Under the pieces are notes generated by a model. The model was not told where the DNA came from. It did no database searches and saw nothing but the letters and a program-made list of their open reading frames with translations. 64,000 bases of DNA. It comes from a virus. Positions within the stretch are counted from its first letter, which is position 1. Each line of letters starts with the position of its first letter. Both the position numbers and the translations under genes were made by a program. The DNA is taken from positions 41,280 to 105,279 of IMG/VR virus record IMGVR_UViG_3300023178_000017. One strand, written 5' to 3'. Below are positions 1 to 43,822 of the stretch, piece by piece.

Positions 1-762
1 ATATGTAGATGGTGATCTGTGTTGATATGTGCTAGGTACACGATATGATCTTGGGTCTTGATATGTAGACGGCGATCTATGTTGATATGTGCTAGGTACA
101 CGATATGATCTAGGATCACGGTATGTAAATGGCGATCTATGGTTATATGTAAACGGTGACCTATGTTGATACGTAAACGGTGATCTATGTTGATAAGTCG
201 AAGGTTGTCTAGCGCCTCTAATATTAGGTTCTTGTGCTGATACAGGGTGTCTGTAACCTGCTGGTTGTTGTGCTGATCTAATATTAGGTTCTTGTGCTGA
301 TACAGGGTGTCTATAACCTGCTGGTTGTCTAGCATTACCAATTACTGGTTGTTGTGCTGATACAGGTGCTCTATATGCTGCTGGTTGTCTAGCATTTCTA
401 ATATTAGGTTCTTGTGCTGATCTGATATTAGGTTCTTGACCGCTTCTAATATTAGGTTCTTGTGCTGATCTAATATTAGGTTGTTGACCATTCGCAATAT
501 AAGGCGACTGGAAAGTAAACGGTTGCCTTGCGTTATTAGGTTGTTGAGCATTTGCAATATAAGGCGACTGGAAAGTAAACGGTTGCCTTGCGTTATTAGG
601 TTGTCTAGCATTTGCAATATAAGGTGACTGATATGTAAATGGATTCTGGAATGTAAATGGATTCTGGAATGTAAATGGATTCTGGAAAGTAAAAGGTGTC
701 TGCACAGGAACAGAAGCCTGTGTAATACCTTGAGCATTTGCTGGATAAAAACCTGTTGCCAT
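1..762 (-). CDS. Pro-punctuated repeat fibre protein B (3' end runs off the window); partner of 774..2549
   Basis: Not in the ORF track because it has no stop in the window. Hand translation from ATG 762 is open to position 1: MATGFYPANAQGITQASVPVQTP-FTFQNP x3-FTYQSP-YIANARQP-NNARQP...NIRSAQEP...STYQHRSP-FTYRDP-RSYRVP. Confidence 0.9.
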   Translation of the reverse strand, partial: MATGFYPANAQGITQASVPVQTPFTFQNPFTFQNPFTFQNPFTYQSPYIANARQPNNARQPFTFQSPYIANAQQPNNARQPFTFQSPYIANGQQPNIRSAQEPNIRSGQEPNIRSAQEPNIRNARQPAAYRAPVSAQQPVIGNARQPAGYRHPVSAQEPNIRSAQQPAGYRHPVSAQEPNIRGARQPSTYQHRSPFTYQHRSPFTYNHRSPFTYRDPRSYRVPSTYQHRSPSTYQDPRSYRVPSTYQHRSPSTY

Positions 763-773
763 TTTACTTTAGA

Positions 774-2549
774 TTACTTAGGTGATGGTTTAAAGAAGAA
801 GAAGTTGTGAGCTAATACACCATTTGCAAAGAAATTGTGATTGTCGCCAACGTTCTTCAAGTTATACACCTGTTGTGAATCTTTCTCCTCTATTTTAATT
901 ATTTCTAGTCCTATTTCTGTACCTAGTACAGCATCTGTCATGGTCATCAAATGATCACCGACTGCGATTTCTGAATTTACAAATTCATCTCCACCTTCTT
1001 CTTTGTGGAATTCTTTAAATTTCTCTAAGTTGATAACACCCCATTCACCATTCATTGTTCTAAATGGATGTTCTGAAGTTGTTTCAAGTATTCTACCGTC
1101 TGATAAATGTATCTCATGTATTGATACTTCTCTTGGTTGCATCAACTCTTCGACTACACCGATCTCTAATTTATTTGTCTCTTCGTTCCAAGTCATTACG
1201 TCTTGACCAACTTCTACTGTTTCAATTGGTACATGACTGCCATCGCCCAACCATATCATTGTGCCGGCAACAAAACATCCTTTGCCACCTCCAGGAATGT
1301 TACCAGGTATTGGACCAAACGGTTGATAGAAGTACACTGCTGGGAAGATAAATGGATATCTTGCTGTTTGTTGTGTAGTACTTGGTTGCCTTGCGTTATT
1401 TGGTTGCCTTGCGTTGTTTGGTTGCCTTGCGTTATTAGGTTGTCTAGCAGCAACTGGTTGTCTTGCCTGATACGTAAACGGCGCACGGAATGTAAATGGA
1501 GTCCTTGCGTTATTAGGTTGTCTTGCCTGATACGTAAACGGCGCACGGAATGTAAATGGAGTCCTTGCGTTATTAGGTTGTCTTGCCTGATACGTAAACG
1601 GCGATCTATGGTTATACGTAAACGGTGATCTGTGGTTATATGTAAACGGTGATCTGTGGTTATACGTATACGGTGATCTATGTTGATACGTAAATGGCAC
1701 CCTATATGATCTTGGATCACGGTATGTAAATGGTGATCTGTACGCATACGTAAACGGTATCTGATATGATCTTGGATCACGGTATGTAAATGGTGATCTA
1801 TGTTGATACGTAAATGGCACCCTATATGATCTTGGGTCTCTATATGTAAATGGTGACCTATGTTGATACGTAAACGGTGTTTGTGCGTTTCTGATATTTG
1901 GTTCTTGTGCAGACCTAATATTTGGTTCTTGACCGCTTCTAATATTAGGCTCTTGAGCAGCAACTGGATGTTGATAAGATGCTGGTGTTTGTCTATTTCT
2001 TATAAACGGAGTCTGAGCACTTACAGGGTGATTATACCCAGCTGGTGTTTGTGCGTTTCTGATAAACGGATTCTGTGCATTAACAGGATGTTGATAAGAA
2101 GCAGGTTGTTGTGCGTTTCTGATAAACGGATTCTGTGCATTTACTGGATGTCTATAGAATGCTGGTGTTTGTCTATTTCTTATAAACGGATTCTGTGCAT
2201 TAACAGGATGTCTATATGATACAGAGTTTTGTGCATTCGCAATATAAGGCGATTGAGCATTCGCAATATAAGGATACGGCTGTTGTGCATCTCTTATAAA
2301 TGGATTCTGTCTATTAGCAATATAAGGATACGGCTGTTGTGCATCTCTTATAAATGGATTCTGTCTATTAGCAATATAAGGATATGGTTGTTGTGTAGGT
2401 TGTTGACCTGATGCGTTATTCCACCCACTAGGAGTTTTAATGTAAATTTGATCTACATCTTTCCAAGTGTTTGAAGCAGTTTTAACCCATGCACCTTGGG
2501 TTGAATTCCAACCTGAGGGGGTTTTTACTTTCTGTGAGCCTGTCGCCAT
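774..2549 (-). CDS. Pro-punctuated repeat fibre protein A with C-terminal Hint (BIL-like) domain
   Basis: N-terminal WVK/YIK..GW motif, about 340 aa of 6/8-residue Pro-terminated modules, then the Hint domain and the tail FFFFKPSPK. Confidence 0.9.
   Translation of the reverse strand: MATGSQKVKTPSGWNSTQGAWVKTASNTWKDVDQIYIKTPSGWNNASGQQPTQQPYPYIANRQNPFIRDAQQPYPYIANRQNPFIRDAQQPYPYIANAQSPYIANAQNSVSYRHPVNAQNPFIRNRQTPAFYRHPVNAQNPFIRNAQQPASYQHPVNAQNPFIRNAQTPAGYNHPVSAQTPFIRNRQTPASYQHPVAAQEPNIRSGQEPNIRSAQEPNIRNAQTPFTYQHRSPFTYRDPRSYRVPFTYQHRSPFTYRDPRSYQIPFTYAYRSPFTYRDPRSYRVPFTYQHRSPYTYNHRSPFTYNHRSPFTYNHRSPFTYQARQPNNARTPFTFRAPFTYQARQPNNARTPFTFRAPFTYQARQPVAARQPNNARQPNNARQPNNARQPSTTQQTARYPFIFPAVYFYQPFGPIPGNIPGGGKGCFVAGTMIWLGDGSHVPIETVEVGQDVMTWNEETNKLEIGVVEELMQPREVSIHEIHLSDGRILETTSEHPFRTMNGEWGVINLEKFKEFHKEEGGDEFVNSEIAVGDHLMTMTDAVLGTEIGLEIIKIEEKDSQQVYNLKNVGDNHNFFANGVLAHNFFFFKPSPK
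804..1277 (-). other. Hint / bacterial intein-like domain (158 aa, no endonuclease)
   Basis: Block A CFVAGTMI (Cys425), block B TTSEHPF, block F/G VYNLKNVGDNHNFFANGVLAHN. The +1 residue is Phe. Confidence 0.9.
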
Positions 2550-9061: not shown

Positions 9062-9304
9062 CTAAAATGTTCCGCCGTCTATAACAGTGGTAGTAACCCA
9101 CTTATCAGACGATGCGTTATATGCCAATAGGCCGTTATCTGTTTCACTAGCATCTACATCTGATAGTTCTTGTATAGATTTAGCTGATAGATTGACATTA
9201 GTAGATGAGTTACCAATTGCAACTTGTTTTACTCTAAAGTTACCTTGACCTTGCACCTTTCCTGAGATGCCTGCTACTCTTCCTACTACACCTTTAATTG
9301 CCAT
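9062..9304 (-). CDS. Small virion protein
   Basis: LSDVD..G.L.YN...KW fibre motif; ends IDGGTF. Confidence 0.65.
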   Translation of the reverse strand: MAIKGVVGRVAGISGKVQGQGNFRVKQVAIGNSSTNVNLSAKSIQELSDVDASETDNGLLAYNASSDKWVTTTVIDGGTF

Positions 9305-9306
9305 AC

Positions 9307-9642
9307 TTAACTCCTAGTTACACCTGGCGTTATAATAGCTTGTCCTTCGACAACTCTACTAGTTTGACCACCAGAACTTGTTATGTTTAAGTCATACAGA
9401 TATCTGCCTGGATTTAGAGCAGTTGTTTGTGTATCTGTTAAAGACAAAGTGACCTGACCTGAAGCCTCTGAAATAGATGTAGAAAATGTTGCACTTACTG
9501 AAGAAGACGTATATGTTTTTCTCATTTGTGCAGCTGCTGAATAACCTGATAGGTCTAAAACTGAACCATCAGAGTTTGTTACATCTACTGTAATGCTGAA
9601 GTCTGAACCTTGATCTATGTAAAGATTTGCTATAATTGCCAT
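9307..9642 (-). CDS. Conserved T4-like virion protein (BppU-N-like adaptor)
   Basis: ANLYIDQGSDF..L.GY...AQMRK..GRYLYD..RVVEG motif pattern. Confidence 0.6.
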   Translation of the reverse strand: MAIIANLYIDQGSDFSITVDVTNSDGSVLDLSGYSAAAQMRKTYTSSSVSATFSTSISEASGQVTLSLTDTQTTALNPGRYLYDLNITSSGGQTSRVVEGQAIITPGVTRS

Positions 9643-9659: not shown

Positions 9660-10589
9660 CTAATTATTTAATTGGGAATATGGGACTTTTGTATGTATTT
9701 TTTCTACTGTAGTTGGATCAGTTTTTACGTATGCTTCTTCTAATTGTTTTACAGTACCGTCTGCATCTTTAACATAAACTTGTTTAACTTCTGCTACAGG
9801 ACCTATAGGTCTTCTGCTAGAATATGTTATCTGATATGTAAATGGTGATCTATGTTGATATGTAGTTTGTACAACAATGTTACCACTTCTTGTATTCTGA
9901 GCATTTGCAATATATGGTGAAGGTTGAGAAGCAGAAACCCTATATGTATCTGGCGATCTATGTTGATACGTAAATGGTATTCTATGTTGATAGAACGATG
10001 GTGATCTATGTTGATACGTAAATGGTGTTCTACCTGTTGTAGGATATGTTATAGGTTGCCTATGTTGATATGTTGTTGGTGTTCGCCCTGTTGCCTGATA
10101 TGTTGAAGGCTGTCTTGCATCTCTAATAAATGGATTCTGTCTATCAACAGGATGTCTGTAAGTTGTAGGTGAAGGTTTATTTCTTATAAACGGATTCTGT
10201 TTATTTACAGGATGTCTGTAATTAGCTGATATACGATAGCTACCAATTATCGGATTCTGTCTGTTAACAGGATGTTGATAAGCTGCTGGTTGACGTTGAT
10301 TTGCAACATAAGGTGATGGTCTATTTCTAATAAACGGATTCTGTTGTTGTGCAATGTATGGTGATTGAAATGGACTTCTTGCGATAGCAGCTGTCTGTGC
10401 GTTTGCTATGTAAGGAATAGGCACTCTAGTATTAGCAACTGTCTGAGCGTTTGCTGATGCACGGGCATTAGCAATGTACGGCACAGGCGTAGTACCGTTA
10501 GTAGAATTTTGTCTATTAGCAATATAAGGATACGGCTGTTGTCCTGGCGTTGCGTTTGAATTGCTATATGTTACTTGTACGGTTGGCAT
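9660..10589 (-). CDS. Pro-punctuated repeat fibre protein D; partner of 10591..12255
   Basis: Same module vocabulary (YIANAQ, FIRN, YQHRSP); C-terminal VKQVYVK..AYVK motif. Confidence 0.85.
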   Translation of the reverse strand: MPTVQVTYSNSNATPGQQPYPYIANRQNSTNGTTPVPYIANARASANAQTVANTRVPIPYIANAQTAAIARSPFQSPYIAQQQNPFIRNRPSPYVANQRQPAAYQHPVNRQNPIIGSYRISANYRHPVNKQNPFIRNKPSPTTYRHPVDRQNPFIRDARQPSTYQATGRTPTTYQHRQPITYPTTGRTPFTYQHRSPSFYQHRIPFTYQHRSPDTYRVSASQPSPYIANAQNTRSGNIVVQTTYQHRSPFTYQITYSSRRPIGPVAEVKQVYVKDADGTVKQLEEAYVKTDPTTVEKIHTKVPYSQLNN

Positions 10590-10590
10590 T

Positions 10591-12255
10591 TTATACTATT
10601 ATTGGCCCCCCACTACCTGCATTATATGCTGCTCTTAAACTTATGGGGCTTGATGACCAAGAACCGTTGAAGTATGAAGCTATATGAAAATATGTATAAT
10701 AAGTGTCTGTGCCTTTTGTTGCTTTTATTCCAAAATAAACATCATTTGATGTTAATTGTACTGGATTACCTGTGCTGTCGTATACACCCCACTTAAAAAA
10801 TCTAGCAGTGCGAGTACCATTAAATCCACCCCTTGAAGTTGAACCAGACCAGAAATTATAATATTGGCCTCTGGTTTTTCCACAAACATGTGGATAAAAT
10901 CCATAACTGTTTCCACCTCCTCCGTAACAATTTGTTTGAGCTTGAGTACCTGATACCGATTCACCACTTGCATAATATGCTACATCAAAATTCCAAGTAT
11001 CGTCAATTATACCATTAGCATTCAAATCGGTAATAGGCATATAAAATCTATAATAAAAACTCCAACCACTATTACTAAAAGAGTTATAATGACCATACGA
11101 TATTCTAAAAGCCCCTAAAGGATTTGTCTGAACAGTATTATTGTTAGCTGCAAAATCAAATTGCATATAACAACCACATTCGGTATGATTAAAACCAGGA
11201 TTACCAGTTGCTAATTGAAGAGTATTCCAACTTGGTACACTAAACATAGAAGCAGTTCCTGAAGGTGGGTCAGAATTTATATAATTCGTACTACCACCAA
11301 AAGGATATACATCCCAAACAGGATTACTTATACCTGAGCCCCAAGGTTGAGGGTTCGGTTGATTAGCTAAAGTTGCACTTGTTGCTGTTGAACTTCCAGA
11401 CAGTGCTGATTCGCCTACAATACCTTCATATGATGTTGGTACCTGAGCAGTCGATGGTGACTGATATATGTAAGGCGTTTGGCCTTGTGCTGAATAAGTC
11501 GAAGGCGATTGATAAATGTAAGGCGATGGTCTTTGCGCCTGATACGTAAACGGATTTTGATAAATCGATGGCACCCTATATGTTTGAGGACTTCTTTGTT
11601 GTGCTTGATAAGTTGAAGGCACTCTATAAGGTACAGGTTGTTGATTTGACTCCTGTGCGTTTATATTTGCTGGTGACTGGTGTTGATACGTAGTAGGTTG
11701 TTGTGCCTGATATGTTACAGGATTTCTGTAACTTCTTGGGTCACGATATGTACTAGGTGATCTATAAGCATAACTTACAGGATTTCTGTAACTTCTTGGG
11801 TCACGATATGTACTAGGTGATTGATGTTGATACGCAACTATAACCTGTGCATTTCTTGGGTCTCTATAAGTTGAAGGACTTTGATGTTGATACGTAAACG
11901 GTGTTTGTGCGTTTGCAGGATACGGATACGGATTCTGTCTATTAGCAATATAAGGTGATTGTGCATCGGCCTGATAAGTATACGTTTGTTGTGCGTTTCT
12001 TATAAAAGGATTTTGTCTCGATCTTATGTTAGGTTGCTGTGCGTTTCTTATAAAAGGATTTTGCCTATTAACAGGATTTCGATAAATTATTGGTTGTTGA
12101 TTCTGATAAGTCGAAGGAGACTGAAACGTATAAGGAACAATCGATGGTTGTTGTCTTATATTTGGTTCTTGAATGTTAGCAGGTTGCCTTGCTATGTAAG
12201 GTTGCTGAAAACTACCGCCATTTAAATTGTGTTTAATGTAAATTTTATCTGCCAT
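10591..12255 (-). CDS. Pro-punctuated repeat fibre protein C with aromatic-rich C-terminal head domain
   Basis: N-terminal KIYIK, about 260 aa of modules, then about 270 aa of non-repetitive W/Y/F/G/C-rich sequence. Confidence 0.85.
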   Translation of the reverse strand: MADKIYIKHNLNGGSFQQPYIARQPANIQEPNIRQQPSIVPYTFQSPSTYQNQQPIIYRNPVNRQNPFIRNAQQPNIRSRQNPFIRNAQQTYTYQADAQSPYIANRQNPYPYPANAQTPFTYQHQSPSTYRDPRNAQVIVAYQHQSPSTYRDPRSYRNPVSYAYRSPSTYRDPRSYRNPVTYQAQQPTTYQHQSPANINAQESNQQPVPYRVPSTYQAQQRSPQTYRVPSIYQNPFTYQAQRPSPYIYQSPSTYSAQGQTPYIYQSPSTAQVPTSYEGIVGESALSGSSTATSATLANQPNPQPWGSGISNPVWDVYPFGGSTNYINSDPPSGTASMFSVPSWNTLQLATGNPGFNHTECGCYMQFDFAANNNTVQTNPLGAFRISYGHYNSFSNSGWSFYYRFYMPITDLNANGIIDDTWNFDVAYYASGESVSGTQAQTNCYGGGGNSYGFYPHVCGKTRGQYYNFWSGSTSRGGFNGTRTARFFKWGVYDSTGNPVQLTSNDVYFGIKATKGTDTYYTYFHIASYFNGSWSSSPISLRAAYNAGSGGPIIV

Positions 12256-12256
12256 A

Positions 12257-14164
12257 TCATATCACAAACCATAAATGTCCAACTTCTTTACCTGTACCAC
12301 TTGGTGTACCAGATAGTGAAGAAGCACTAACAACTTCATAATCTAACTCAACATCATCGCCGTCTAATTTAACACCGTTTGATGTGTTCACTGATAAAGT
12401 AGCAACACCATCTAATGAATCACCTGAAGAACCTGCGTTATAAGATTTCGCAAGACCTGAACCAGCAGATATGACACTATTTACTCTATCATCTGTAAAG
12501 TATTTATTAGTTTGTTCTGATATAGAATCGGTACCTGTTGAGTTATCTGCAACTTGTAAATCACCATTAGAATCAAATACTAGTATTTGACCAGCAGATG
12601 CACTAGATGTACTACCTACATCTGTTAAATCAGATATAGCAGAGTTCATTGTTGTGTTTATTGATACATTGCCTTTAGCAGTCTGTGTGACTGAACCTGT
12701 AACTGCACCAGTCAATGAAAAGTCTGAATTATCTAAAACTAAATCTAAAGTATTATCTGAGTCATCATAGGTAACTGAAAGACCTGATTCAGTGTTTGAA
12801 CTAATCATTGTACCGACTGTGTCAGCAATTCTTTCTACAATGTCATCAACTACAAAACTAGAACCGTTGTACTTAAGAACACTATTAGTATTTGCGCCAC
12901 TTGTATTTACATCTGAAAGATCATCGATACTAGCAGCTGCGATTCTAGCGTCTGCTCTACCGTCTGTATAATAAAGATTAGAACTTCCTTCTGTTAAATC
13001 ATCAGTGTCATGGTTTGATAAACTTGAAACTGTACCTGTAAGATGTCCTGTTGATACATTTAAAACTGTTGTTGAACCGTCTGCTGTAATTGTAGATAAT
13101 CTTGCAGTAGCATCGGTACCATTTGTACCGTTATCGATGATTGTTTGACCACCACTTGATAGAACATCACCTTTTAGATTACCATTAAAAGTAGTTGCAG
13201 TCATGTCTGTTGCATGAATGTTCTGCCATTTTAGTATACTACTTCCAAGTTCGTGTGTGTTGTTAGCACTTGGTAAAACATCTGAGTCTATTGAACCTGT
13301 GAATGATATTGTATCACTAGATGCGTTACCTAAATCGATGTTACAATTCAGTGATGATAATCCATTAACTGTTAAAGCGCCAGTAGTTGTAACTGTTGAG
13401 GCATTTAAATCACCGCCTGTAAGTGTTGCAGTTCCATCACTCAATGTACCCACGTTGACTGTTGCGCTAAAGTTTGCATTTACACCACCAGTAATACTAC
13501 CTGAGTTGATACTCATGGTGCTATCAGTAATTGTAGGCGCAGTCATTACACCGCCTGTTGTGATTGTTATATCATCTTCTGCAAATGTTTTACCTGCAAG
13601 TTGAATGTTGAAACCAGTCTCTAATTCTGTTGTGTTATTTGTGTTTGAAGCATTAAGAATAACACCATTTGAGTTGTTGTTAAAGATTGAGTTTGTATCT
13701 GATAACTGCCAGTATGAAGCACCTGTACTTGCTAATGCAGTACCTAAGTATGAACCTGTGTAAGAATATAGAACGAATCTATCGCCATTTGATAAACCAG
13801 AACCGTATGTAGCACCTTGTAAGTTAATTCTTCCATAACTACCATCTGAATTTTGGCTAGTGATCTGATAGTCTATACCTTCTATTAAGTGAGAACCGTT
13901 GACAAAGACCTGAATTCGGTCTTGTACAAATTTCATCACATTGTTAAACTGATCAGCGCCTTCGAAATGCGTTTCACCACCAGTTGCAATATACACATAC
14001 TCTTGGAAGTAAAATGCTTTATCTTCTACACTATTAACAGCGTCAACTAAAGTTGCTTGAGCAGTAGTTCTAAGACCACTAATATCACCCACGTCATTAG
14101 CCAACACATTATATTGTTGTCTAAAATTTTCTATAGTACTGAAACTGTCTACTGTTTTAGCCAT
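12257..14164 (-). CDS. Tail fibre-like virion protein
   Basis: Fibre repeats (TDDLTEGSSNLYYTD, LSDV); C-terminal PSGTGKEVGHLWFVI. Confidence 0.7.
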   Translation of the reverse strand: MAKTVDSFSTIENFRQQYNVLANDVGDISGLRTTAQATLVDAVNSVEDKAFYFQEYVYIATGGETHFEGADQFNNVMKFVQDRIQVFVNGSHLIEGIDYQITSQNSDGSYGRINLQGATYGSGLSNGDRFVLYSYTGSYLGTALASTGASYWQLSDTNSIFNNNSNGVILNASNTNNTTELETGFNIQLAGKTFAEDDITITTGGVMTAPTITDSTMSINSGSITGGVNANFSATVNVGTLSDGTATLTGGDLNASTVTTTGALTVNGLSSLNCNIDLGNASSDTISFTGSIDSDVLPSANNTHELGSSILKWQNIHATDMTATTFNGNLKGDVLSSGGQTIIDNGTNGTDATARLSTITADGSTTVLNVSTGHLTGTVSSLSNHDTDDLTEGSSNLYYTDGRADARIAAASIDDLSDVNTSGANTNSVLKYNGSSFVVDDIVERIADTVGTMISSNTESGLSVTYDDSDNTLDLVLDNSDFSLTGAVTGSVTQTAKGNVSINTTMNSAISDLTDVGSTSSASAGQILVFDSNGDLQVADNSTGTDSISEQTNKYFTDDRVNSVISAGSGLAKSYNAGSSGDSLDGVATLSVNTSNGVKLDGDDVELDYEVVSASSLSGTPSGTGKEVGHLWFVI

Positions 14165-14360
14165 TTATTTTCTCTTCTATCTTTCTAAGAAGTTCCTTAA
14201 CTTCGGTTACTTCTTGTCTTAAACTATTTATTTCCTTTTTCTGAGAAGCAATGATTTGTCTTCTTCTCATTACCAATTTAAACTGTTCAACATCTGTATT
14301 GATAATTGCTTGTGAACTTTCTTCTCTAATTAGATTTGAATGTCCTTCAACCTTTATCAT
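14157..14360 (-). CDS. Conserved hypothetical protein following the VrlC-like gene
   Basis: [18 protein letters not shown] plus coiled coil; ATGA overlap with the upstream stop supports the 14360 start. Confidence 0.7.
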
Positions 14361-17300
14361 GCTAATGCTATACATCTAAGACCAGAAATTATTGGTACTT
14401 GAGATGTGTTTGTAGCCTGTCCTACAATCTTAATTATAAAACCTGTAAATTCAGGTAAGTTGTCTGCTGTGTATTCGTATTCTTTAAAGTTTCTAGCGTC
14501 TTGATCAATAGCTGTGTCAGGACCACCAGTTGAGTTAAAGAATTCAAATCCTAAATCATCTACTGGTGTATCTTCATCGTTTTTGATGAGTTTGTATAAA
14601 ACTTTAATGTCTGAGTTAGGTGGTCTAAAGTTATCTGATAAAACTTTCAATGATGTAGCAGGATTCTTTAAACTTACCAATCTTGTTGTGTATACCATTG
14701 CGTTGTTATCGCCATCTGGTTCTGTTGATGGTACGTAAACTTCACCATCTGATAGATCGGCAGCAGAATCAATATCATTAATTCTGTTCATAATACCTAG
14801 ACAACCAATTGTACCTGTATCAATGTAAGGTGATACGTTTGGATTTGATGATCTCATTTGTAGTAATAATCTAAATGATCTCTGGTTACCCATTCTCTCT
14901 AATTCGTTGAGGGGTGATGCAACAACACTTGGTCTACTGAAGTAAACGTTATCGTTTAATTTAATAAAGTCATTTGCAGTTCTTCTTACATATTCAGTAT
15001 CTAAGTTTGAATCTTCTGGTGAACCCATACCTGTTCTATTAATACTTGAGAATATTTGAGTATTATTAAATGTTATAGAAGGTATCATTGTATGAATTGC
15101 ATCATAATAGATGTTTCTTGTACTTCTAACTTGACTACCACCGCCATCTACACTTTGAGTTGCAACAAAACTTGTGCCGCCTTCTAAGTCATAAGATGAC
15201 ATTACAGATGTTCTAGGTAGAACATTAAATGAGTCTATACTATAATCTTGTAGACTCTCGTGTGTACCGTTAATAGCTGCAACTGGAATACCACCCAATG
15301 TGTTTTCAACATTGGTGACACTTACTGTAAATGTTTGACTGTCGATTGTGACTGTAATAGTGTCGTTCACTGCGTAGTCACTACCTGGATCAGTAATCTT
15401 AATTGAGTTTACTGCATCTAAATCTCCAGCGTCTACAACTACTTTGACTTTAAGACCTGTACCTGTACCACCTGTTACAACAGCATCATTACTTCCACCA
15501 GTCTCGTATGTCTGTGCTGTTACGGCAGCACTAATAGCACTTGGTGTGCCAATCTCTACTACGCCATCTTCTTTATCGCCTTTCACGCCTGCTATTGTTA
15601 CGTGTGAAGTTGTTTCGTACATACCGTGTGAGTAGTTTAATATCTTAACATAACTTTGACCAGCAAATGTTTGAACTGGATTCTCTTGTAGTTTTACATC
15701 TCCGATAAAATCGTTTTCAAACACAACTTCTGCAACTTTTGAGGTATCGAATTGTGCAATCTTAAGATTGAACTTGAGATCGTCTGTTTGTTCTGCTGTC
15801 CATGTTGATGCGTTTTGTGATAAGAACAATGAACCAGCATATGGTTGTCCTGAAATTGTTTCACCAGTAATTAAATCGTTTTCGCCCATTCTGGATATGA
15901 AACATTCGTATTCGTTTGAGTTTGATAAAACTACGAAACAGTATTCTTTACCTTTCTCTAGGTATACAGGCGAATCAAATGTAAATGTTGTAGCACTTGA
16001 ACCGTCTTCTGAAATATTAACTTCGTTTGGATTCTTAGATACTGTTGAGAATGGTAATACTAACTGACCTGGATAACCATTCACCATGTTTCTAACTTGT
16101 ACTGACACTGGTAGTGCATCGTCTTTAGTTCTAAAGAATAGATCAACTGAAGACAACATCATGCCACCATCCATATCTACTAAGAATGATTCTGCTAATG
16201 GATCGACCCACTCTGTCTCACGCAATTCTCTCTCATCGAATATTCTAGGAATTCTAGGATCAACGTCCCAAAAATCTCTAGGGTCATCAATAGGCGGTGG
16301 TGACGGTATCGGCGTACTTGTTGGTGTCGGCGTTGGTGTCGGTGTCGGTGTAGGCGACGGTGTAGGCGCAGGAGTTGTTGTCGGCGCTGGCGTCGGCGTA
16401 GGTGTCGGTGTAGGACTTGGTGTAGGCTCTGGAGTCGGTGTTGGACTCGGTATAGGTGCCTCAGTAGGTTCTGGTGTAGGTGTAGGTGCTGGAGTTGCAG
16501 GTGGTTCTGGACTTGGCTCAGGTGGTGTACCTGTACCAGGTGTTACGTTTAATAACTCACCTCTTCTTACTATTTGTCTCTCAGCAGATAGCCTTTCAAT
16601 AACTACTCTACCATTCCTTGTTGATACAATTTCAGTTTGTGAAGCTTGTAATAAACCTTGTGCTTGATAGATTGCATTACCTCGTGATGCTGGGTTAGAA
16701 AGGTTATTTGAACTTGATGTAATAACCATTTCTCTAGCACCAGTTGGGAATCTCTGGAATCTATCGTTAGGTAAACTGAATGTTGCTCTTAATCTACCGT
16801 TACCATCTGTTTTTACTATTTGATCGTATGATGTACCACCATCTTTACTGTACAGTGTACTGAATGGTTTTACATATGAGTTTACATCGATACCATCAAA
16901 GAATACGTAATGGTTTGTGTTTGGTTTTAAGTTAACTGCATCTATTTCAATGTCTCTTGGTCTACAGAATGGTACAATTGTGACACTAACAATTCTATCG
17001 TTACGTGTTTCAACTAACTCTTCTACAACCGATGTTCTAACACCTGTTCTGATCTGAGACTCAGGTGTTTCTGTTACATTTCTTGTAACAGTAGTATTAG
17101 GTGTATATTCACCACCTTGTGAAGGATCACCGTTCCAAGCTGCTGGAACACTTGATAATGTCTCTGTCTCTACAACTGTAGGTTCACCTACCCATGTAGT
17201 CTGCCATGCGTTCCAAACAGTGCCTAATGCGTTTTCGTTCTCTGCTAATATTGCATCGAAGTTGCCTTCTCTGTTAACTCTTACTTCTGGTAATTGTTCT

Positions 17301-20300
17301 GTGTCTTGCCAGATGTCTGTCTCTGGACTTAGTTTAACGTGACCAATAAATGCAAACACAGCGTATGGGTTAACATTTAATGACCTAGATGCCTTATTTT
17401 GATTAACAAATGATCTTTCTGTATATGGTAATGTGATAATATCACCAGACTTCTTATAGTTACGTGACAATGCTGAGTTAGCAATGATATCAAAGAACTG
17501 AGTATGGTGTTTAGGTCTTAATTGACCTAGTTTTGTATCGATAGCACATTCATAGTCTGGATGTGAAACATCACCAATCTTATGACCTCTAAAGTTATCT
17601 ACTAAGAAGCCTGATTTATATCTGTCAAATCCGTCTGCATCTAAAATTTGTTTTGATTGTGTATCTTTTTCTAATAAAGATAGTGCTGTAATTCTTTCAA
17701 TGTTTGTAAGTCTTTGGTTTATTCTACCAATATCTTTCATCGTATATCTACGATGATCAAATTGTTTTAAATTGATTTCTTTTAAGTTTGATGTGTAAGC
17801 AGGTATGAACAATTCGAACATTTCAATTGCATCATCTAACTGATTTGGTTTTTGAGGACTAATATCAGGATAACCAATAGAAACTTCAAACTTACCATTT
17901 CTAGTTAAGAATACTTTATCAATTCTAGGTACATAGAAATCTATATCTGCTGTCACTGAAGATGTAGGCATTGGACATGAAATTGTTCCATTGTCGACAT
18001 CGTTAAACACCCTTGATGTGTATACAAATGGTGCAGCTGTTACTTTTGTATTATCTGATAAGTTTAATGGATCGTTCTGATCATAAGCATTTGTATCATC
18101 ATCTTGGAAATTAGTGCCAGGTAAAAAGTCTGTTGATGGTCTAAAGTCTACTGCATCTGATAATTCGAACTTACCGTCTGGTTCAAAACCACCTAAGTCT
18201 ACTTTATTTGGTGAGTAATTTGGTATATCTTTGTACTCAACATCAGCACTGTTATAAGAATTTACTGAGTAGTAATCTCCTGTACCACCTCTACTAAACA
18301 TGTCAAAGATAACAGTCACAGGATTGTTAGGTGCTGATCTACCTTGTTTTAAAACTAGTTTTGAGAAGTCATAATAACCATCTCTTTGGCCATTGTCTAA
18401 GAAATAGTTGTTCTTAATGTTTGGTGAACCTGCACTTAAGTTTGATAGTACAGCGATACCTGAACTTGTTTGGCCAACAATTGTCTCACCGTCAATGAAA
18501 GGTATATCATTTAAGTATACAAAGTATGATGTGTTTGTATCACCACCCCAATTGATCAATAATGCTCTTGCTGTTGATGATTGACCTACAATCTCTTCTT
18601 TTAATGCAAAAGAACCTGAACTTATTGTTACAGTTGCGTTTGGTGGTGTTGCCTGACTATTTGAACCTGAAGTTGTGCCTGGAACTGCCTCTAAAACTGC
18701 ATGTATTTTATAGACATCTGGTACACATAGATTCAATTCTTTGTGATCGTATGCAAGACCATAGAAAGGTTTATCACTATTAGATGATCTAAATGAAACT
18801 GATCTGAATTTTTCTAAAGCTTTTGACTTTACAGCAGGTGCTGTTCTCTTAACAGTATAAGTTGCTAATATTTGAGCACCTGATCCTGAATCACTGAATG
18901 TAACATCTAATGAAGTACCTGGTGTACCAAAAGTTACATCGTCTGCGACTAACACGTCACCTAATGCTACGACATCACCAGTTCCGTTTAGTGATAATTT
19001 AGTAAATTGATATTTGTCATCACCAAAGTCTGAGAATGTTTCGTCTGACTCTTTTGTCAAAGTGATTGTACCATTTGACATTGAGAACAGTCCTTGTTTT
19101 CTGACTTCTACTGTTCCTGTTGGTGTTACATCTGAAACGTAATCTCTAGGCCATGCAAATATATTTGATGTCTGATCTTGGTCTGCAAGTTTTGCTCTTT
19201 TTCTGATAACTGCTACTTGTGTTGCCGCTGAAGGTGTCACTGCACCACCAGCTGTTGTAACTACATTTAACGATGTATCGTTAGTAACAACTGAAACTCT
19301 ATGTTCTGTACCATTAACAACGATATGATCACCAACTTTTACTTCTTTAGTAAACTGTGAACCAACACCTTGTAATTCATTTGTTGAGCCATTAAATGTA
19401 CCTAAACCAGATATTACTGATATATCATCTAATACTACATCGGCACTAAAGTCTAGTCCTACGCTAGCAGGTGAAACTTGACCGACTGAGTGAGATTGAC
19501 TTACATTAAAGACCTGAACACTAGTTGATGCTACTGCTGATGCAGTTCCCTTACCTCTAACTGATACATTATTACCTGATACAAATTGTCCTACTACATC
19601 ATGTAGATAAATGTTATTACTATCGACATATGCAACAATACCTGTTGCGCCTGTAATATCGTCTGTTAGTTTATCACCGTTAGCATATAATGTTGAGGTT
19701 GCTGTTGTAACTCCAACTTTAGTAAACATTTTAATATCAAATAGATATAATTGATATTCATCTGTAGCTGACTCATCAAAATGTCTAACTCTTGCAAAAC
19801 CAATATTCTCTGCACTACCACTTAATGCTGATGCAGAAGATTTAGGTAGACTGTAAAGTTTGATTGGTTCGAAAGCATTTGTTGAAGCTGAATCACCAAT
19901 TTCTGGCATTCCATAAATGTTGTTGATTTTTAATTTATTACCTATTCTAACTGGTGTTGATGCGTTAGATAGTTCTGCTGTTGTTCTTGCTTTATTAATT
20001 GTTAGGTTTGATGTACCTGCTTTTTCAATTTCGTATCCTCTAACATAAGCTTTACCAGCAGATATCTGCATGATAAACTTCTCTTCTTGTCCGCCTTCTG
20101 CTATTGGATAAAACCCTTTGTTATCTGAAGTTTTTAAATGTTCTCTGAAATTACTAGTAAATGGTCTTACAACAAAATCGCCATTGGCATCAAAGGTTCT
20201 TCGTGCCATAGTATTTTCTATTTCAGAATAGATTGGTCTATTGATTGATAGTTCAATGATACCATTGTTAACTCTTGCTAATTCAATGAAGTTAACACTT

Positions 20301-21124
20301 GTAGTATCTGTTAGTGCTACTTTAGATAATGTAAGATCAAATTTTAATCTATCGGCACCAGGCGCATTATCGTTTGATGAGCCTTGTGCATTGTCTAAGA
20401 GACTATTATCTTCTGTTGATGATATGATAGTTTCATTGATAGAAAGACCAACTCTATATGAAGGATTACCTGCATATTTTTCTAATACGATAAGTTGTTT
20501 GTCTACCTTTACAAAGAAACCTCTTGTAAAAACTACACCTTCTGAAATTTCTGCAATTGAAGCACGACCAGTTGGTGTTGATGATTGTGATAATGTTTTA
20601 AAGTAGTTGTTGTTTGTTGCTACAGCAGAAGTTGATCCAAAACCGTCAGCTGAGAATTCTACTTCTCTTATTTCTTCTGAACCTTTGAATATAAAAGAAC
20701 CATCGCTGTCTGTACCTTGTGATAATGCTTTTACAAATAGTGTTATAGAATCATCTTCAGTTTCAGCAGTTGATGAAATAACTTTTGCTACTACACCTGT
20801 TGTTAAACCTTGAATGAGTTTGCCGTGAAAACTAGTTCTATAAGATTCTACGTTTAGATCGCCGTTTGCATTTGGATTTGAATTTTGTACTTTGACAAAA
20901 TAGATGTCCATGTCAATGTTTGACTGAGCACCTGAAACAATAGAACCTTCTTTAAAGAAATGATCACCAAATTTCTCTACCTGATCTTGTAGAATAGATT
21001 GAGTTTGAGTTAACTCTCTCGCTTGAATTGGTCGACCAGCACGATACAGAACTTTATGAAATTTCTTGTCTGCATCGTAATCATCGTAATATGGTGTAAT
21101 ATTTAGATCCGTTTTCTCTGACAT
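14357..21124 (-). CDS. Large virion structural protein, VrlC/DUF4815-like
   Basis: N-terminal LN..PYYDD...KVLYR.G.P.QARELTQ.QSILQ motif; RYTMKDIG; DPLAESF; lies next to gp8. Confidence 0.85.
16292..16528 (-). repeat. Pro/Thr-rich (PT)n linker in the VrlC-like protein
   Basis: [19 protein letters not shown]...[17 protein letters not shown]; locally GC-rich hexamer repeats. Confidence 0.85.
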
Positions 21125-41740: not shown

Positions 41741-43822
41741 ATGGCGACATTAGCATTACCAAATCCAAATCCTGGTGGCGGAAAAACATCTAAAGCATTA
41801 CCTGTTACAATCATAGATGCTGAATTCACAGTAGTCAATGAAAAAAATGGTAAAAATGGTAAGAAAACAGATGATACCAACACCGTAAAAAATCAGAAAG
41901 AATTCTTTAAGAACTTCCAAGAAACTATGAAGAAGGCGTTTGAGCCTTTTAAAGAAGGTACTGATCAAATTAAGGGTGGTGTTAATGAATTGTTTGGCGG
42001 AGGCGGTGCTATGTTTACACCTCTGAAAATGTTGTTCGATAAACTCAAAGCAGTCTTTGATATTATAATGGGTCTTGGCAAGATTCTTGCAGTTCCTTTA
42101 AAAGCTATCTTTAAAAAGAAAGACAAAGATGATGATAAGAAACGTAAGAAAGAAAAGAAAAAAGACATAAAGGATAAAGACAAAAAAGACGCTAAAGCAA
42201 GAGGCGGATTATTAGGTGGTATTGGTCGTTTACTATTGCCAATTCTAGGTTGGGGTCTGTTACTTGGTGCTTTAGTTCTTGGAATCATGGCGTTGTGGAA
42301 CTATTTTAAGAAAGGTGAGTTTGTCACTGGTCTTAGAAACATGGGTTACAATATTTCTATTGGTATAGCTAAAGTTTTTGGTAAAGACGAGCTCGTTGAA
42401 CAACTTCAACAAGAACAGATAGCAATGAATTTATCGTCTAACAAGTACATGGATGATGTTGGTGAATATCTAAAAACAACAGCGAAAACCAATCTCGAAA
42501 CAATGAAACGAACAGGAGCATCCGAAGAAGAAATTAAGGCTGCAGAAGAAAGACTTCGTAAAGGTGAGTATACAGATGAAGAAATGTTATTTGGTTTAAA
42601 AGAAGCTTTTGATAAATTGGCAAGAGATGGTATTATAGGTCCTGAAGAACTTGAAAAGTATAGAAAGAATATGTTCGCAGACGAAAGAACAGGAGTCATT
42701 GGCGATGTCATCACAAGAGAATATGATCCAGAAGGACAAGTTTTAAGAGCAACAGAAGAGGTAGTCGATAGAATTAATGAACAACAATTAGACTCTAGTA
42801 CCGAGATTGGCAAACAAAATGTTGAAAATATCAGTAAAGTTATAGAAGAATCTAAGATAGATAATGTAGATGTTGAGGCCAGAAATATTGATGACAATTT
42901 AATTATGCCTGATACTTTTGATGGTTATTTAACTCTATCAAATCCAGATGGTTCACCAGTAACAGAAGACCAGTTCTTAAACGATGCATCTTTCGACAAA
43001 TATCAAGCTCTTAGATATAGCACTGGTTATCAAGTTGGAGCAGATGGCAATGTAATGATTCCAATACACGATCAAACTTTCTCAGTGGCAGCAAATGACA
43101 ACAATCTTGGAATGTTCACAGGCGCAGGTGATCTTAGTTCACCATTTGAAAAAGTAGAAGGTGGTGGATTTAGAATTAAAACTGTTGAAGAATTGGCGGA
43201 AAACCTTGGTACTCAAAATATGAATCTGTCACTTATGTCCGCAAATAGTTCACCATATGGTGGTTTTGGTATGAGTAGTTTAGATGATGAATCTGACGAA
43301 TCGAAACTAAGGAGAGCACAACAAATTATTGACAGGGCTGAAGCACAAATAGACAAACAAATAATGGATAGCGTTAATCTCCAATCATATGAAGGTGCTG
43401 TTGAACTTACACCTGATCCAGATACGACATATGGTGAAGGTGTATTTGCAGCATGGCAAGAAGAGGCAGATGCTTTGGGTCCTCAATTCTTAACTATGTT
43501 GAAAGATATGCAAAACTTTAATGATTGGTATGCAAAAAATGGTGATGCATGGGATTGGACAACCTCAACAGACGAACAAGGAGAATTTGATAGTTTTAAA
43601 GATTCTCAAAGAGAAATTAATGACACTATAGAATCAATTGCAGCTAATACAGGCATAACCATAGAGGAATTATATGAAGCTCTAGGAAATTACGCTTCTG
43701 CTAATGATATTAATGCTACTAGCGTTATTCAAACTAATAATACCAATTACTCTCAAGGTGAATACGGCAATAGAGTTTCACACTTGAATTCTGCCTTATT
43801 TCCCAAAACAGCTAGTGATTAA
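41741..43822 (+). CDS. Tape-measure-like protein (gp29 position)
   Basis: Helical N-terminal half with a G/L-rich TM segment; follows the tube and chaperone genes. Confidence 0.55.
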   Translation: MATLALPNPNPGGGKTSKALPVTIIDAEFTVVNEKNGKNGKKTDDTNTVKNQKEFFKNFQETMKKAFEPFKEGTDQIKGGVNELFGGGGAMFTPLKMLFDKLKAVFDIIMGLGKILAVPLKAIFKKKDKDDDKKRKKEKKKDIKDKDKKDAKARGGLLGGIGRLLLPILGWGLLLGALVLGIMALWNYFKKGEFVTGLRNMGYNISIGIAKVFGKDELVEQLQQEQIAMNLSSNKYMDDVGEYLKTTAKTNLETMKRTGASEEEIKAAEERLRKGEYTDEEMLFGLKEAFDKLARDGIIGPEELEKYRKNMFADERTGVIGDVITREYDPEGQVLRATEEVVDRINEQQLDSSTEIGKQNVENISKVIEESKIDNVDVEARNIDDNLIMPDTFDGYLTLSNPDGSPVTEDQFLNDASFDKYQALRYSTGYQVGADGNVMIPIHDQTFSVAANDNNLGMFTGAGDLSSPFEKVEGGGFRIKTVEELAENLGTQNMNLSLMSANSSPYGGFGMSSLDDESDESKLRRAQQIIDRAEAQIDKQIMDSVNLQSYEGAVELTPDPDTTYGEGVFAAWQEEADALGPQFLTMLKDMQNFNDWYAKNGDAWDWTTSTDEQGEFDSFKDSQREINDTIESIAANTGITIEELYEALGNYASANDINATSVIQTNNTNYSQGEYGNRVSHLNSALFPKTASD

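Follow-up and report, generated by a model that had tools for sequence, protein, structure and literature searches.

Genes C and D of an uncultured marine T4-like phage: a candidate two-chain antiparallel beta fibre shaft specified by a module code

Background

Phage fibres are, to our knowledge, parallel homotrimers. Periodic codes that set the partner and the register of two chains are represented by heterodimeric coiled-coil zippers of the Fos/Jun type, orthogonal pairs of which coexist in one cell, and a long stalk made of paired arrays is found in streptococcal antigen I/II, where a single folded-back chain pairs an alpha helix with a polyproline-II helix. This report concerns two adjacent genes, C and D, located in a 64,000-nucleotide stretch of viral DNA (the window; bases 41280–105279 of IMG/VR record IMGVR_UViG_3300023178_000017), whose products carry long arrays of 6-, 8- and 10-residue modules that mirror each other when one of the two proteins is read backwards.

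Structural work on other phages provides two further points of reference. In the needle of T4 gp37, G921 lies opposite F970 of another subunit in a tight large-versus-small packing (PMC6957217). In phage DT57C, LtfC forms the collar that anchors the lateral fibres and takes up short beta strands from the N-terminus of the fibre protein (PMC10713586).

The source record of C and D is a 105-kb linear virus contig with a CheckV completeness of 58%, and the phage is an uncultured marine T4-like virus of the myovirus type. A T4 gp8-like baseplate gene was found near C and D, and fibre-like genes occur in a long minus-strand run. The same window contains another pair of array genes, A and B (pair 1).

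Register and residue parity

An earlier note, made from the sequence alone, had described D, read from N- to C-terminus, as matching C read from C- to N-terminus; the positions of both open reading frames (ORFs) proved correct, and both belong to the minus strand. Gene C (10591..12255, 554 amino acids) encodes the upstream 'long' chain, composed of an 18-residue N-terminus, an array and a C-terminal globular part, while gene D (9660..10589, 309 amino acids) encodes the downstream 'return' chain with an 18-residue N-terminus, an array and a conserved 48-residue C-terminal tail. A single base separates the stop codon of C from the start codon of D. All 18 module pairs quoted in the note were present and contiguous, occupying residues 86–219 of D (9933..10334, minus strand), which form the best-matched core at 0.68 bits per residue, and residues 62–195 of C (11671..12072, minus strand). 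The module lengths of D from N- to C-terminus (8,8,6,6,8,6,6,8,6,6,8,10,8,10,8,8,8,6) are an identical string to those of C in the opposite direction. Four of the module boundaries lack proline, consistent with the remark that a few had been placed by eye.

Ungapped cross-correlation of proline positions was used as a test free of hand-placed boundaries. It gave 23 Pro-Pro coincidences for C/D in the antiparallel orientation, compared with 15 at the second-best offset and 17 at the best parallel offset. For A/B, 47 of 52 prolines coincided (33 at the next offset), and the four non-cognate combinations of the chains reached 18–21. In the best register, residue i of D faces residue 280-i of C, from Pro19 to Pro261 in each protein, so that the match extends beyond the 18 listed modules. 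Both arrays are therefore equal in length (243 residues, end prolines included). The corresponding register of pair 1 places residue i of A opposite residue 412-i of B.

A strict alternation of residues accompanies this register. Prolines occupy odd positions in 36 of 36 cases in the C array (residues 19–261; 11473..12201, minus strand) and in 32 of 32 cases in the D array (residues 19–261; 9807..10535, minus strand), while even positions are occupied by all 33 Tyr and Phe residues of the C array and by 28 of the 29 in the D array (68/68 prolines and 61/62 aromatic residues for both arrays together). This parity suggests one unbroken extended strand. As i+j is even, like parity stands opposite like parity. 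The rare deviation in which an IG module faces YAY, said in the earlier note to recur between the two pairs, does so, with G142 of A opposite Y270 of B and G116 of D opposite Y164 of C.

No DNA inverted repeat was found between the C and D genes. Reverse complementarity of DNA or RNA was accordingly ruled out as the origin of the pattern; moreover, complementary codons would not face Pro with Pro.

Scoring of cognate and non-cognate pairs

Of the pair 1 genes, B (774..2549, minus strand) encodes 591 amino acids with an array at residues 55–389 and a C-terminal Hint domain. Gene A (1..762, minus strand) is truncated by the window edge, and its full 376 residues were taken from the genome record (genome 40911..42041; array at residues 23–357). 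We derived a residue-pair log-odds matrix from the A/B register only and scored the best local ungapped antiparallel alignment of each combination. C/D ranked highest with 107 bits, followed by A/C (91), C/B (84), A/D (71) and B/D (59), and 200 module-order shuffles of D averaged 26 bits with a maximum of 46. A second matrix, obtained from 35 foreign gene pairs, again placed C/D on top at 124 bits, compared with 61–89 bits for non-cognate combinations; module-shuffled C/D averaged 30–35 bits (highest 52–65; z = 14–22). Best parallel alignments remained below 17 bits, as opposed to 107–124 bits for antiparallel C/D. Neither non-cognate nor shuffled alignments thus scored as well as C/D, and the view of C and D as a second pair under the pairing rule of A and B is borne out, with a modest margin of C/D above the non-cognates. 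In each of five other contigs carrying pairs of both kinds, cognate scores of 161–554 were obtained versus non-cognate scores of 53–171, a comparison that is slightly circular because the matrix includes those same pairs.

A further suggestion of the earlier note, that module order acts as a barcode against mispairing, could be upheld in part. Module order does give a unique full-length register and the cognate combination scores highest (matched segments of 200 residues in C/D and 349 residues in A/B), but the chains have their modules in common, and these are cross-compatible over local stretches. What discriminates would hence have to be the register over its full length together with the end domains, the modules not being exclusive.

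Residues 116–274 of A and 137–297 of B (window positions ~1659–2141 for B) are each their own antiparallel complement, with 23 of 23 prolines in register and scores of 177 and 191 bits, and judging by these sequences partial homodimer pairing of A or B looks possible. C and D have no self-complementary stretch (35 and 50 bits).

Related loci

Pattern scans of IMG/VR with C and B as queries produced 148 related loci, 127 of which had two and only two array ORFs, side by side on one strand. Two loci (L145, 806–2317; L077, 6001–7467) displayed a complete array ORF of ~490–500 amino acids and no detected partner ORF in the fetched stretch; their partners may be frameshifted or may fall under the detection rule of 12 regular modules. 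None of the array ORFs among the loci was self-complementary over its full length. Single-chain fusions of both arrays, sought among longer proteins with the conserved N-terminus of B, were not found either, which is weak evidence.

Across 67 distinct pairs, the ungapped antiparallel register of most put 0.8–0.96 of the prolines of the smaller protein opposite prolines. In a non-redundant set of 44 pairs the median proline match was 0.89 for cognate and 0.49 for non-cognate partners, and the cognate partner was uniquely best in 40 cases. Array spans of the partners, measured independently, ranged from 215 to 582 residues and were strongly correlated (r = 0.92). Pro-Pro spacings were overwhelmingly even (3648 versus 176 odd; commonest 8, 6 and 10), which indicates a period of 2 and not 3, and 96% of prolines fell on one parity with 99% of tyrosines on the other. 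A collagen or polyproline-II fibre was rejected on the grounds of this spacing, together with the lack of G-x-y runs in the arrays; a parallel homotrimeric shaft of the adenovirus or T4 gp5/gp12 type was rejected given the parallel scores of less than 17 bits and the constant presence of two different genes.

Five residues (P, Q, Y, R and N) together account for 56% of the composition. One face of the arrays is populated by P, Q, T, R, N and I and the other by Y, A, S, F, G, V and H. Facing pairs enriched across the family were P-P, Y-A, Y-G, H-R, I-R, F-Q, Q-T, N-S, E-F and E-L, with preferences of 2–3.4 bits for Y-A, Y-G, H-R and E-F. Changes in one partner were mirrored in the other. Comparison of loci L100 and L116 revealed replacement of block 268–332 in the upstream protein and of the facing block 250–320 in its partner (register i+j=580); both replacements added 16 residues, and new 10-residue units of the YPYIAN type face new units of the GTYARQGQTP type. 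Swapping partners between relatives lowered the proline match from 0.92–0.96 to 0.55–0.62 in three independent comparisons.

Subtypes and chain ends

The loci separate into a commoner B/A subtype and the C/D subtype, and the proposal that the latter is a separate conserved subtype with end domains and neighbours of its own held true. In the B/A subtype, the upstream chain starts with a 54-residue N-terminus (70–91% identical across loci) and the downstream chain closes with a conserved tail of ~20 residues; the lengths of these proximal overhangs (54 and 19 residues) stay constant across paired spans of 196 to 538 residues. At its opposite end, the upstream chain is variable (14 to 205 residues) and frequently contains a Hint domain. 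In the C/D subtype, the N-terminus of the upstream chain is short (15–33 residues), the tail of the downstream chain comprises 46–71 residues with 45–54% identity to that of D, and the weakly conserved C-terminal part of the upstream chain has 194–232 residues. For either subtype, an antiparallel arrangement is the only one that brings the conserved termini of both chains to a single end.

In C itself, the N-terminus (residues 1–18; 12202..12255, minus strand) contains a strand-like motif, KIYIK, and would share an end with the D tail in an antiparallel model. This tail (residues 262–309; 9663..9806, minus strand), for which the 45–54% identity to other C/D-type partners was recorded, contains the motifs VYVK and AYVK. 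The C-terminal part of C (residues 275–554; 10594..11433, minus strand), a putative distal tip, is weakly conserved (24–29%). Its AlphaFold2 model, based on a nine-sequence alignment, is all-beta but has a pLDDT of 44, which makes it unusable and leaves no fold assignable.

Separately, residues 425–591 of B (777–1277, minus strand) form a Hint/intein-like domain directly after the array, matching Pfam Intein_splicing at 33.3 bits (cut-off 35.8). Among the loci, at least 28 upstream-type proteins had such a domain, as did most of the database relatives. An antiparallel model would bring the Hint domain of B next to the N-terminus of A, and from the sequence it is conceivable that the domain cleaves itself off, or that it transfers the B array onto A as a covalent hairpin.

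Neighbouring genes and an LtfC-like protein

C/D-type loci follow a fixed gene order: a small virion protein, a conventional fibre gene, C, D, a 111-amino-acid gene and an 80-amino-acid gene, beyond which lie further fibre genes and then B, A and a GT8-like gene. In the window, the conventional fibre-like protein (635 amino acids; 12257..14164, minus strand) is encoded directly upstream of C, a position kept in C/D-type loci.

The 111-amino-acid gene (9307..9642, minus strand) directly follows D, and an LtfC-like gene was present after the D-type gene in eight out of ten C/D-type loci with matches to the neighbours of the subtype. Its product matched PHROG 3304, 'L-shaped tail fiber protein assembly' (E = 4e-22), and aligned to Pfam LtfC with 24.4 bits, under the cut-off of 27. 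The AlphaFold2 model, with a beta-sandwich fold, had a pLDDT of 84. The first four Foldseek ranks for this model were occupied by the DT57C baseplate (8hqz, chains Q and T) and the T5 tail tip (7qg9, chains J and L), all chains of 137–140 residues, with E-values of ~3e-8 and TM scores of 0.70–0.76, well above generic Ig-like folds. The predicted structure therefore assigns this protein to the LtfC/T5 collar fold beside a fibre gene, a match at fold level only, and makes it a putative docking protein for the proximal fibre end.

In every C/D-type locus examined, the LtfC-like gene was followed by the 80-amino-acid gene (9062–9304, minus strand; PHROG 13853, function unknown). A 2255-amino-acid protein encoded upstream of the fibre block (14357–21124, minus strand) contains a DUF4815 domain (237 bits), and its gene includes a short tandem repeat tract of 6/12/18 nt at 16300–16438. 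On the opposite strand, a 693-amino-acid ORF (41741–43822, plus strand) had no tblastn match in a collection of 50,697 phage records, which is unusual for a T4-like genome. Just beyond the window, the gene after A (genome 39277..40881, minus strand) encodes a 534-amino-acid protein, one region of which resembles GT8 glycosyltransferases (23 bits, cut-off 24.3). Downstream array genes of 34 related loci are likewise followed by a homologue, and the protein may modify the Tyr/Thr/Ser-rich arrays. The psbA gene was not found in the record, at 58% completeness.

Database searches

No family in Pfam or PHROGs covered C or D. The Cementoin/trappin repeat (PF10511) was tried and rejected, as B (24.1 bits) and A (14.8 bits) stayed below the cut-off of 27 and C and D had no score. 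A phage genome collection returned weak compositional matches only and no isolate phage carrying these genes, a PDB sequence search with D returned a compositional match to CFAP276 only, and ESM Atlas returned unnamed clusters only. The C tip matched only itself in two protein searches of very large scope, one word-indexed and one a full HMMER search, and no relatives of it were found beyond the viral contigs. The upstream chain had 43 relatives in databases, none with a functional name; just three were named at all, as 'hypothetical protein'. A full-text literature search did not reveal any published description of C/D-type arrays.

Discussion

From the observed mirror register, residue parity, family-wide covariation and conserved synteny, we infer direct contact between the chains, a beta conformation, a polarity in the virion and possibly a higher assembly. 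On sequence evidence, C and D probably form a two-chain antiparallel, hetero-oligomeric beta fibre shaft of the virion. Alternation with a period of 2, maintained for hundreds of residues, suggests an extended strand of the beta type whose two faces differ in chemistry, and the antiparallel register brings residues of the same side face to face, large against small, as happens in antiparallel sheets, which is why C/D is read as a ribbon. Each chain would run through its array as one uninterrupted extended strand, ~242 residues long, and the two would be held antiparallel in a single fixed register, with residue i of D opposite residue 280-i of C. Proline would face proline, the other face would set aromatic against small residues (Y-A, Y-G), and H-R, I-R, Q-T and N-S would be further facing pairs. 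The order of the 6-, 8- and 10-residue modules would set this register and favour the cognate partner above the pair 1 chains.

The conserved end of the ribbon, made up of the N-terminus of C and the C-terminal tail of D, would be the virion-proximal one, possibly docked to the LtfC-like protein by strand donation, and the variable C-terminal part of C, adjoining the N-terminus of D, would constitute the distal tip. At ~3 Å per residue, we estimate the length of such a ribbon at roughly 70–80 nm. Its aromatic face would probably be buried through bundling, and a higher assembly is possible, for example three heterodimers joined into a trimer akin to the T4 gp37 needle with its out-and-back strands.

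Several results weigh against this model. C/D is less regular than A/B, with only 23 of its 32–36 prolines coincident, and D220–265 opposite C60–15 has a negative score. Specificity is not absolute, as non-cognate chains share perfectly complementary blocks of 72–92 residues and A and B each include a self-complementary stretch of ~160 residues. Glycine opposite an aromatic residue is enriched family-wide (odds ratio 28, p = 4e-8), but this is not strict and the statistic ignores phylogeny; covariation counts in general are not fully independent, the loci being related. Module class is the dominant term in the mutual information of facing modules, which is insufficient on its own to fix residue contacts. 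Monomer models are poor (pLDDT 0.47 for the ESM Atlas model of D, 44 for the AlphaFold2 model of the C tip). Prediction of a complex between C(1–290) and D ended with a score of 0.00 and no verdict, and was counted neither for nor against binding.

Some of these results would also suit an in-register antiparallel pairing of C and D other than a simple beta ribbon, with the chains in another extended conformation or in a higher-order bundle that does not make facing residues neighbours across strands. Mutual-information maps, with strong odd-odd coupling, no clean antidiagonal and no unique residue register, agree with such an assembly, as do the disordered monomer predictions. Even so, we regard it as unlikely, since strict period-2 parity over hundreds of residues suits beta strands and excludes the period-3 polyproline-II and collagen conformations, a proline every 6–10 residues excludes alpha helices, and residues of the same parity face each other as antiparallel sheets require. 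The mirror could also arise with no contact at all, if C and D ran in opposite directions along a common third component, such as the upstream trimeric fibre, which would act as a shared ruler for module lengths. A conventional fibre gene is indeed always located upstream of each pair. Nevertheless, the cross-chain preferences resemble direct complementarity of size and charge (Y-A, Y-G, H-R and E-F at 2–3.4 bits), the G/aromatic swap recurs, and array length varies 2.7-fold while the upstream fibre genes have no obvious scaling, all of which makes a ruler distinctly improbable.

We give very little credence to a disordered, sticky Tyr/Arg/Gln-rich material, for instance an adhesive, cement or condensate scaffold, in which no partner register is fixed and the mirror would be a by-product of module spread between adjacent paralogues. 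Low-complexity composition (P, Q, Y, R and N at 56%), the sub-threshold Cementoin matches of A and B and the low confidence of the predicted models would fit such a material, but recombination is not known to place complementary non-homologous modules, reversed, in a second same-strand gene, and the DNA between the genes shows no inverted repeat. Unbroken parity, constant overhangs and mirrored block changes imply selection on an exact register instead.

Beyond the proposed antiparallel shaft itself, we lean slightly towards the broader proposal of a natural pairing code, in which three module lengths and two complementary classes would determine both partner and register in an antiparallel beta duplex that is encoded by two genes and extends over hundreds of residues. 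Such a code would evolve by concerted complementary insertions and provide two largely orthogonal fibres per phage. If true, this would be a new way of building a fibre, from two different antiparallel gene products whose partner and register are written in a simple module code, and would give coiled-coil zippers a natural counterpart made of beta strands. Members of the family are frequent among marine viral contigs (>140 loci found), and their array length is 2.7-fold variable; given this abundance and variability, the two-gene design may serve to tune fibre length and swap distal tips. Because the code is readable from sequence, it allows exact predictions of facing residues, of swaps that should break pairing and of double changes that should restore it. 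It could, if true, also supply a design alphabet for orthogonal long beta heterodimers.

Comparison with known systems

The resemblance to T5 and DT57C concerns the proximal end, where KIYIK in C and VYVK and AYVK in D resemble the short strands donated to the collar, and by analogy C and D may dock to the 111-amino-acid LtfC-like protein by strand donation. The fibres of T5 and DT57C differ in being parallel homotrimers with a coiled-coil start, and the C/D phage is a T4-like myovirus.

Heterodimeric zippers of the Fos/Jun type are alpha-helical, have a heptad repeat and are mostly parallel, whereas C/D has a period of 2, is proline-rich and antiparallel, and is composed of 6/8/10-residue units. 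The antigen I/II stalk would share with C/D the use of two different antiparallel repeat arrays, one of them proline-rich, to build a thin, very long stalk with a head displayed at its distal end; there, however, a single chain is involved, while here two gene products carry arrays that are both of the beta type with period 2.

Among solved structures, the needle of T4 gp37 (domains D10–D11) appears to be the nearest analogue. No sequence similarity of C or D to gp37 or to solved fibre tips was detected in Pfam or PHROG, nor in the PDB sequence search done with D. The needle is a long thin all-beta segment with out-and-back strands that have antiparallel neighbours; it forms the distal part of the T4-type fibre and needs helper proteins. 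C and D reproduce its antiparallel out-and-back register at the level of sequence only, and with two chains instead of one. The needle holds seven irons by means of histidines, unlike the four arrays described here, which have no HxH motif and no Cys. It also measures a few dozen residues, compared with arrays of 240–580 residues that have a proline every 6–10. In gp37 one chain supplies both the outward and the return strand and the assembly is a homotrimer, whereas in C/D the return strand is a separate gene product.

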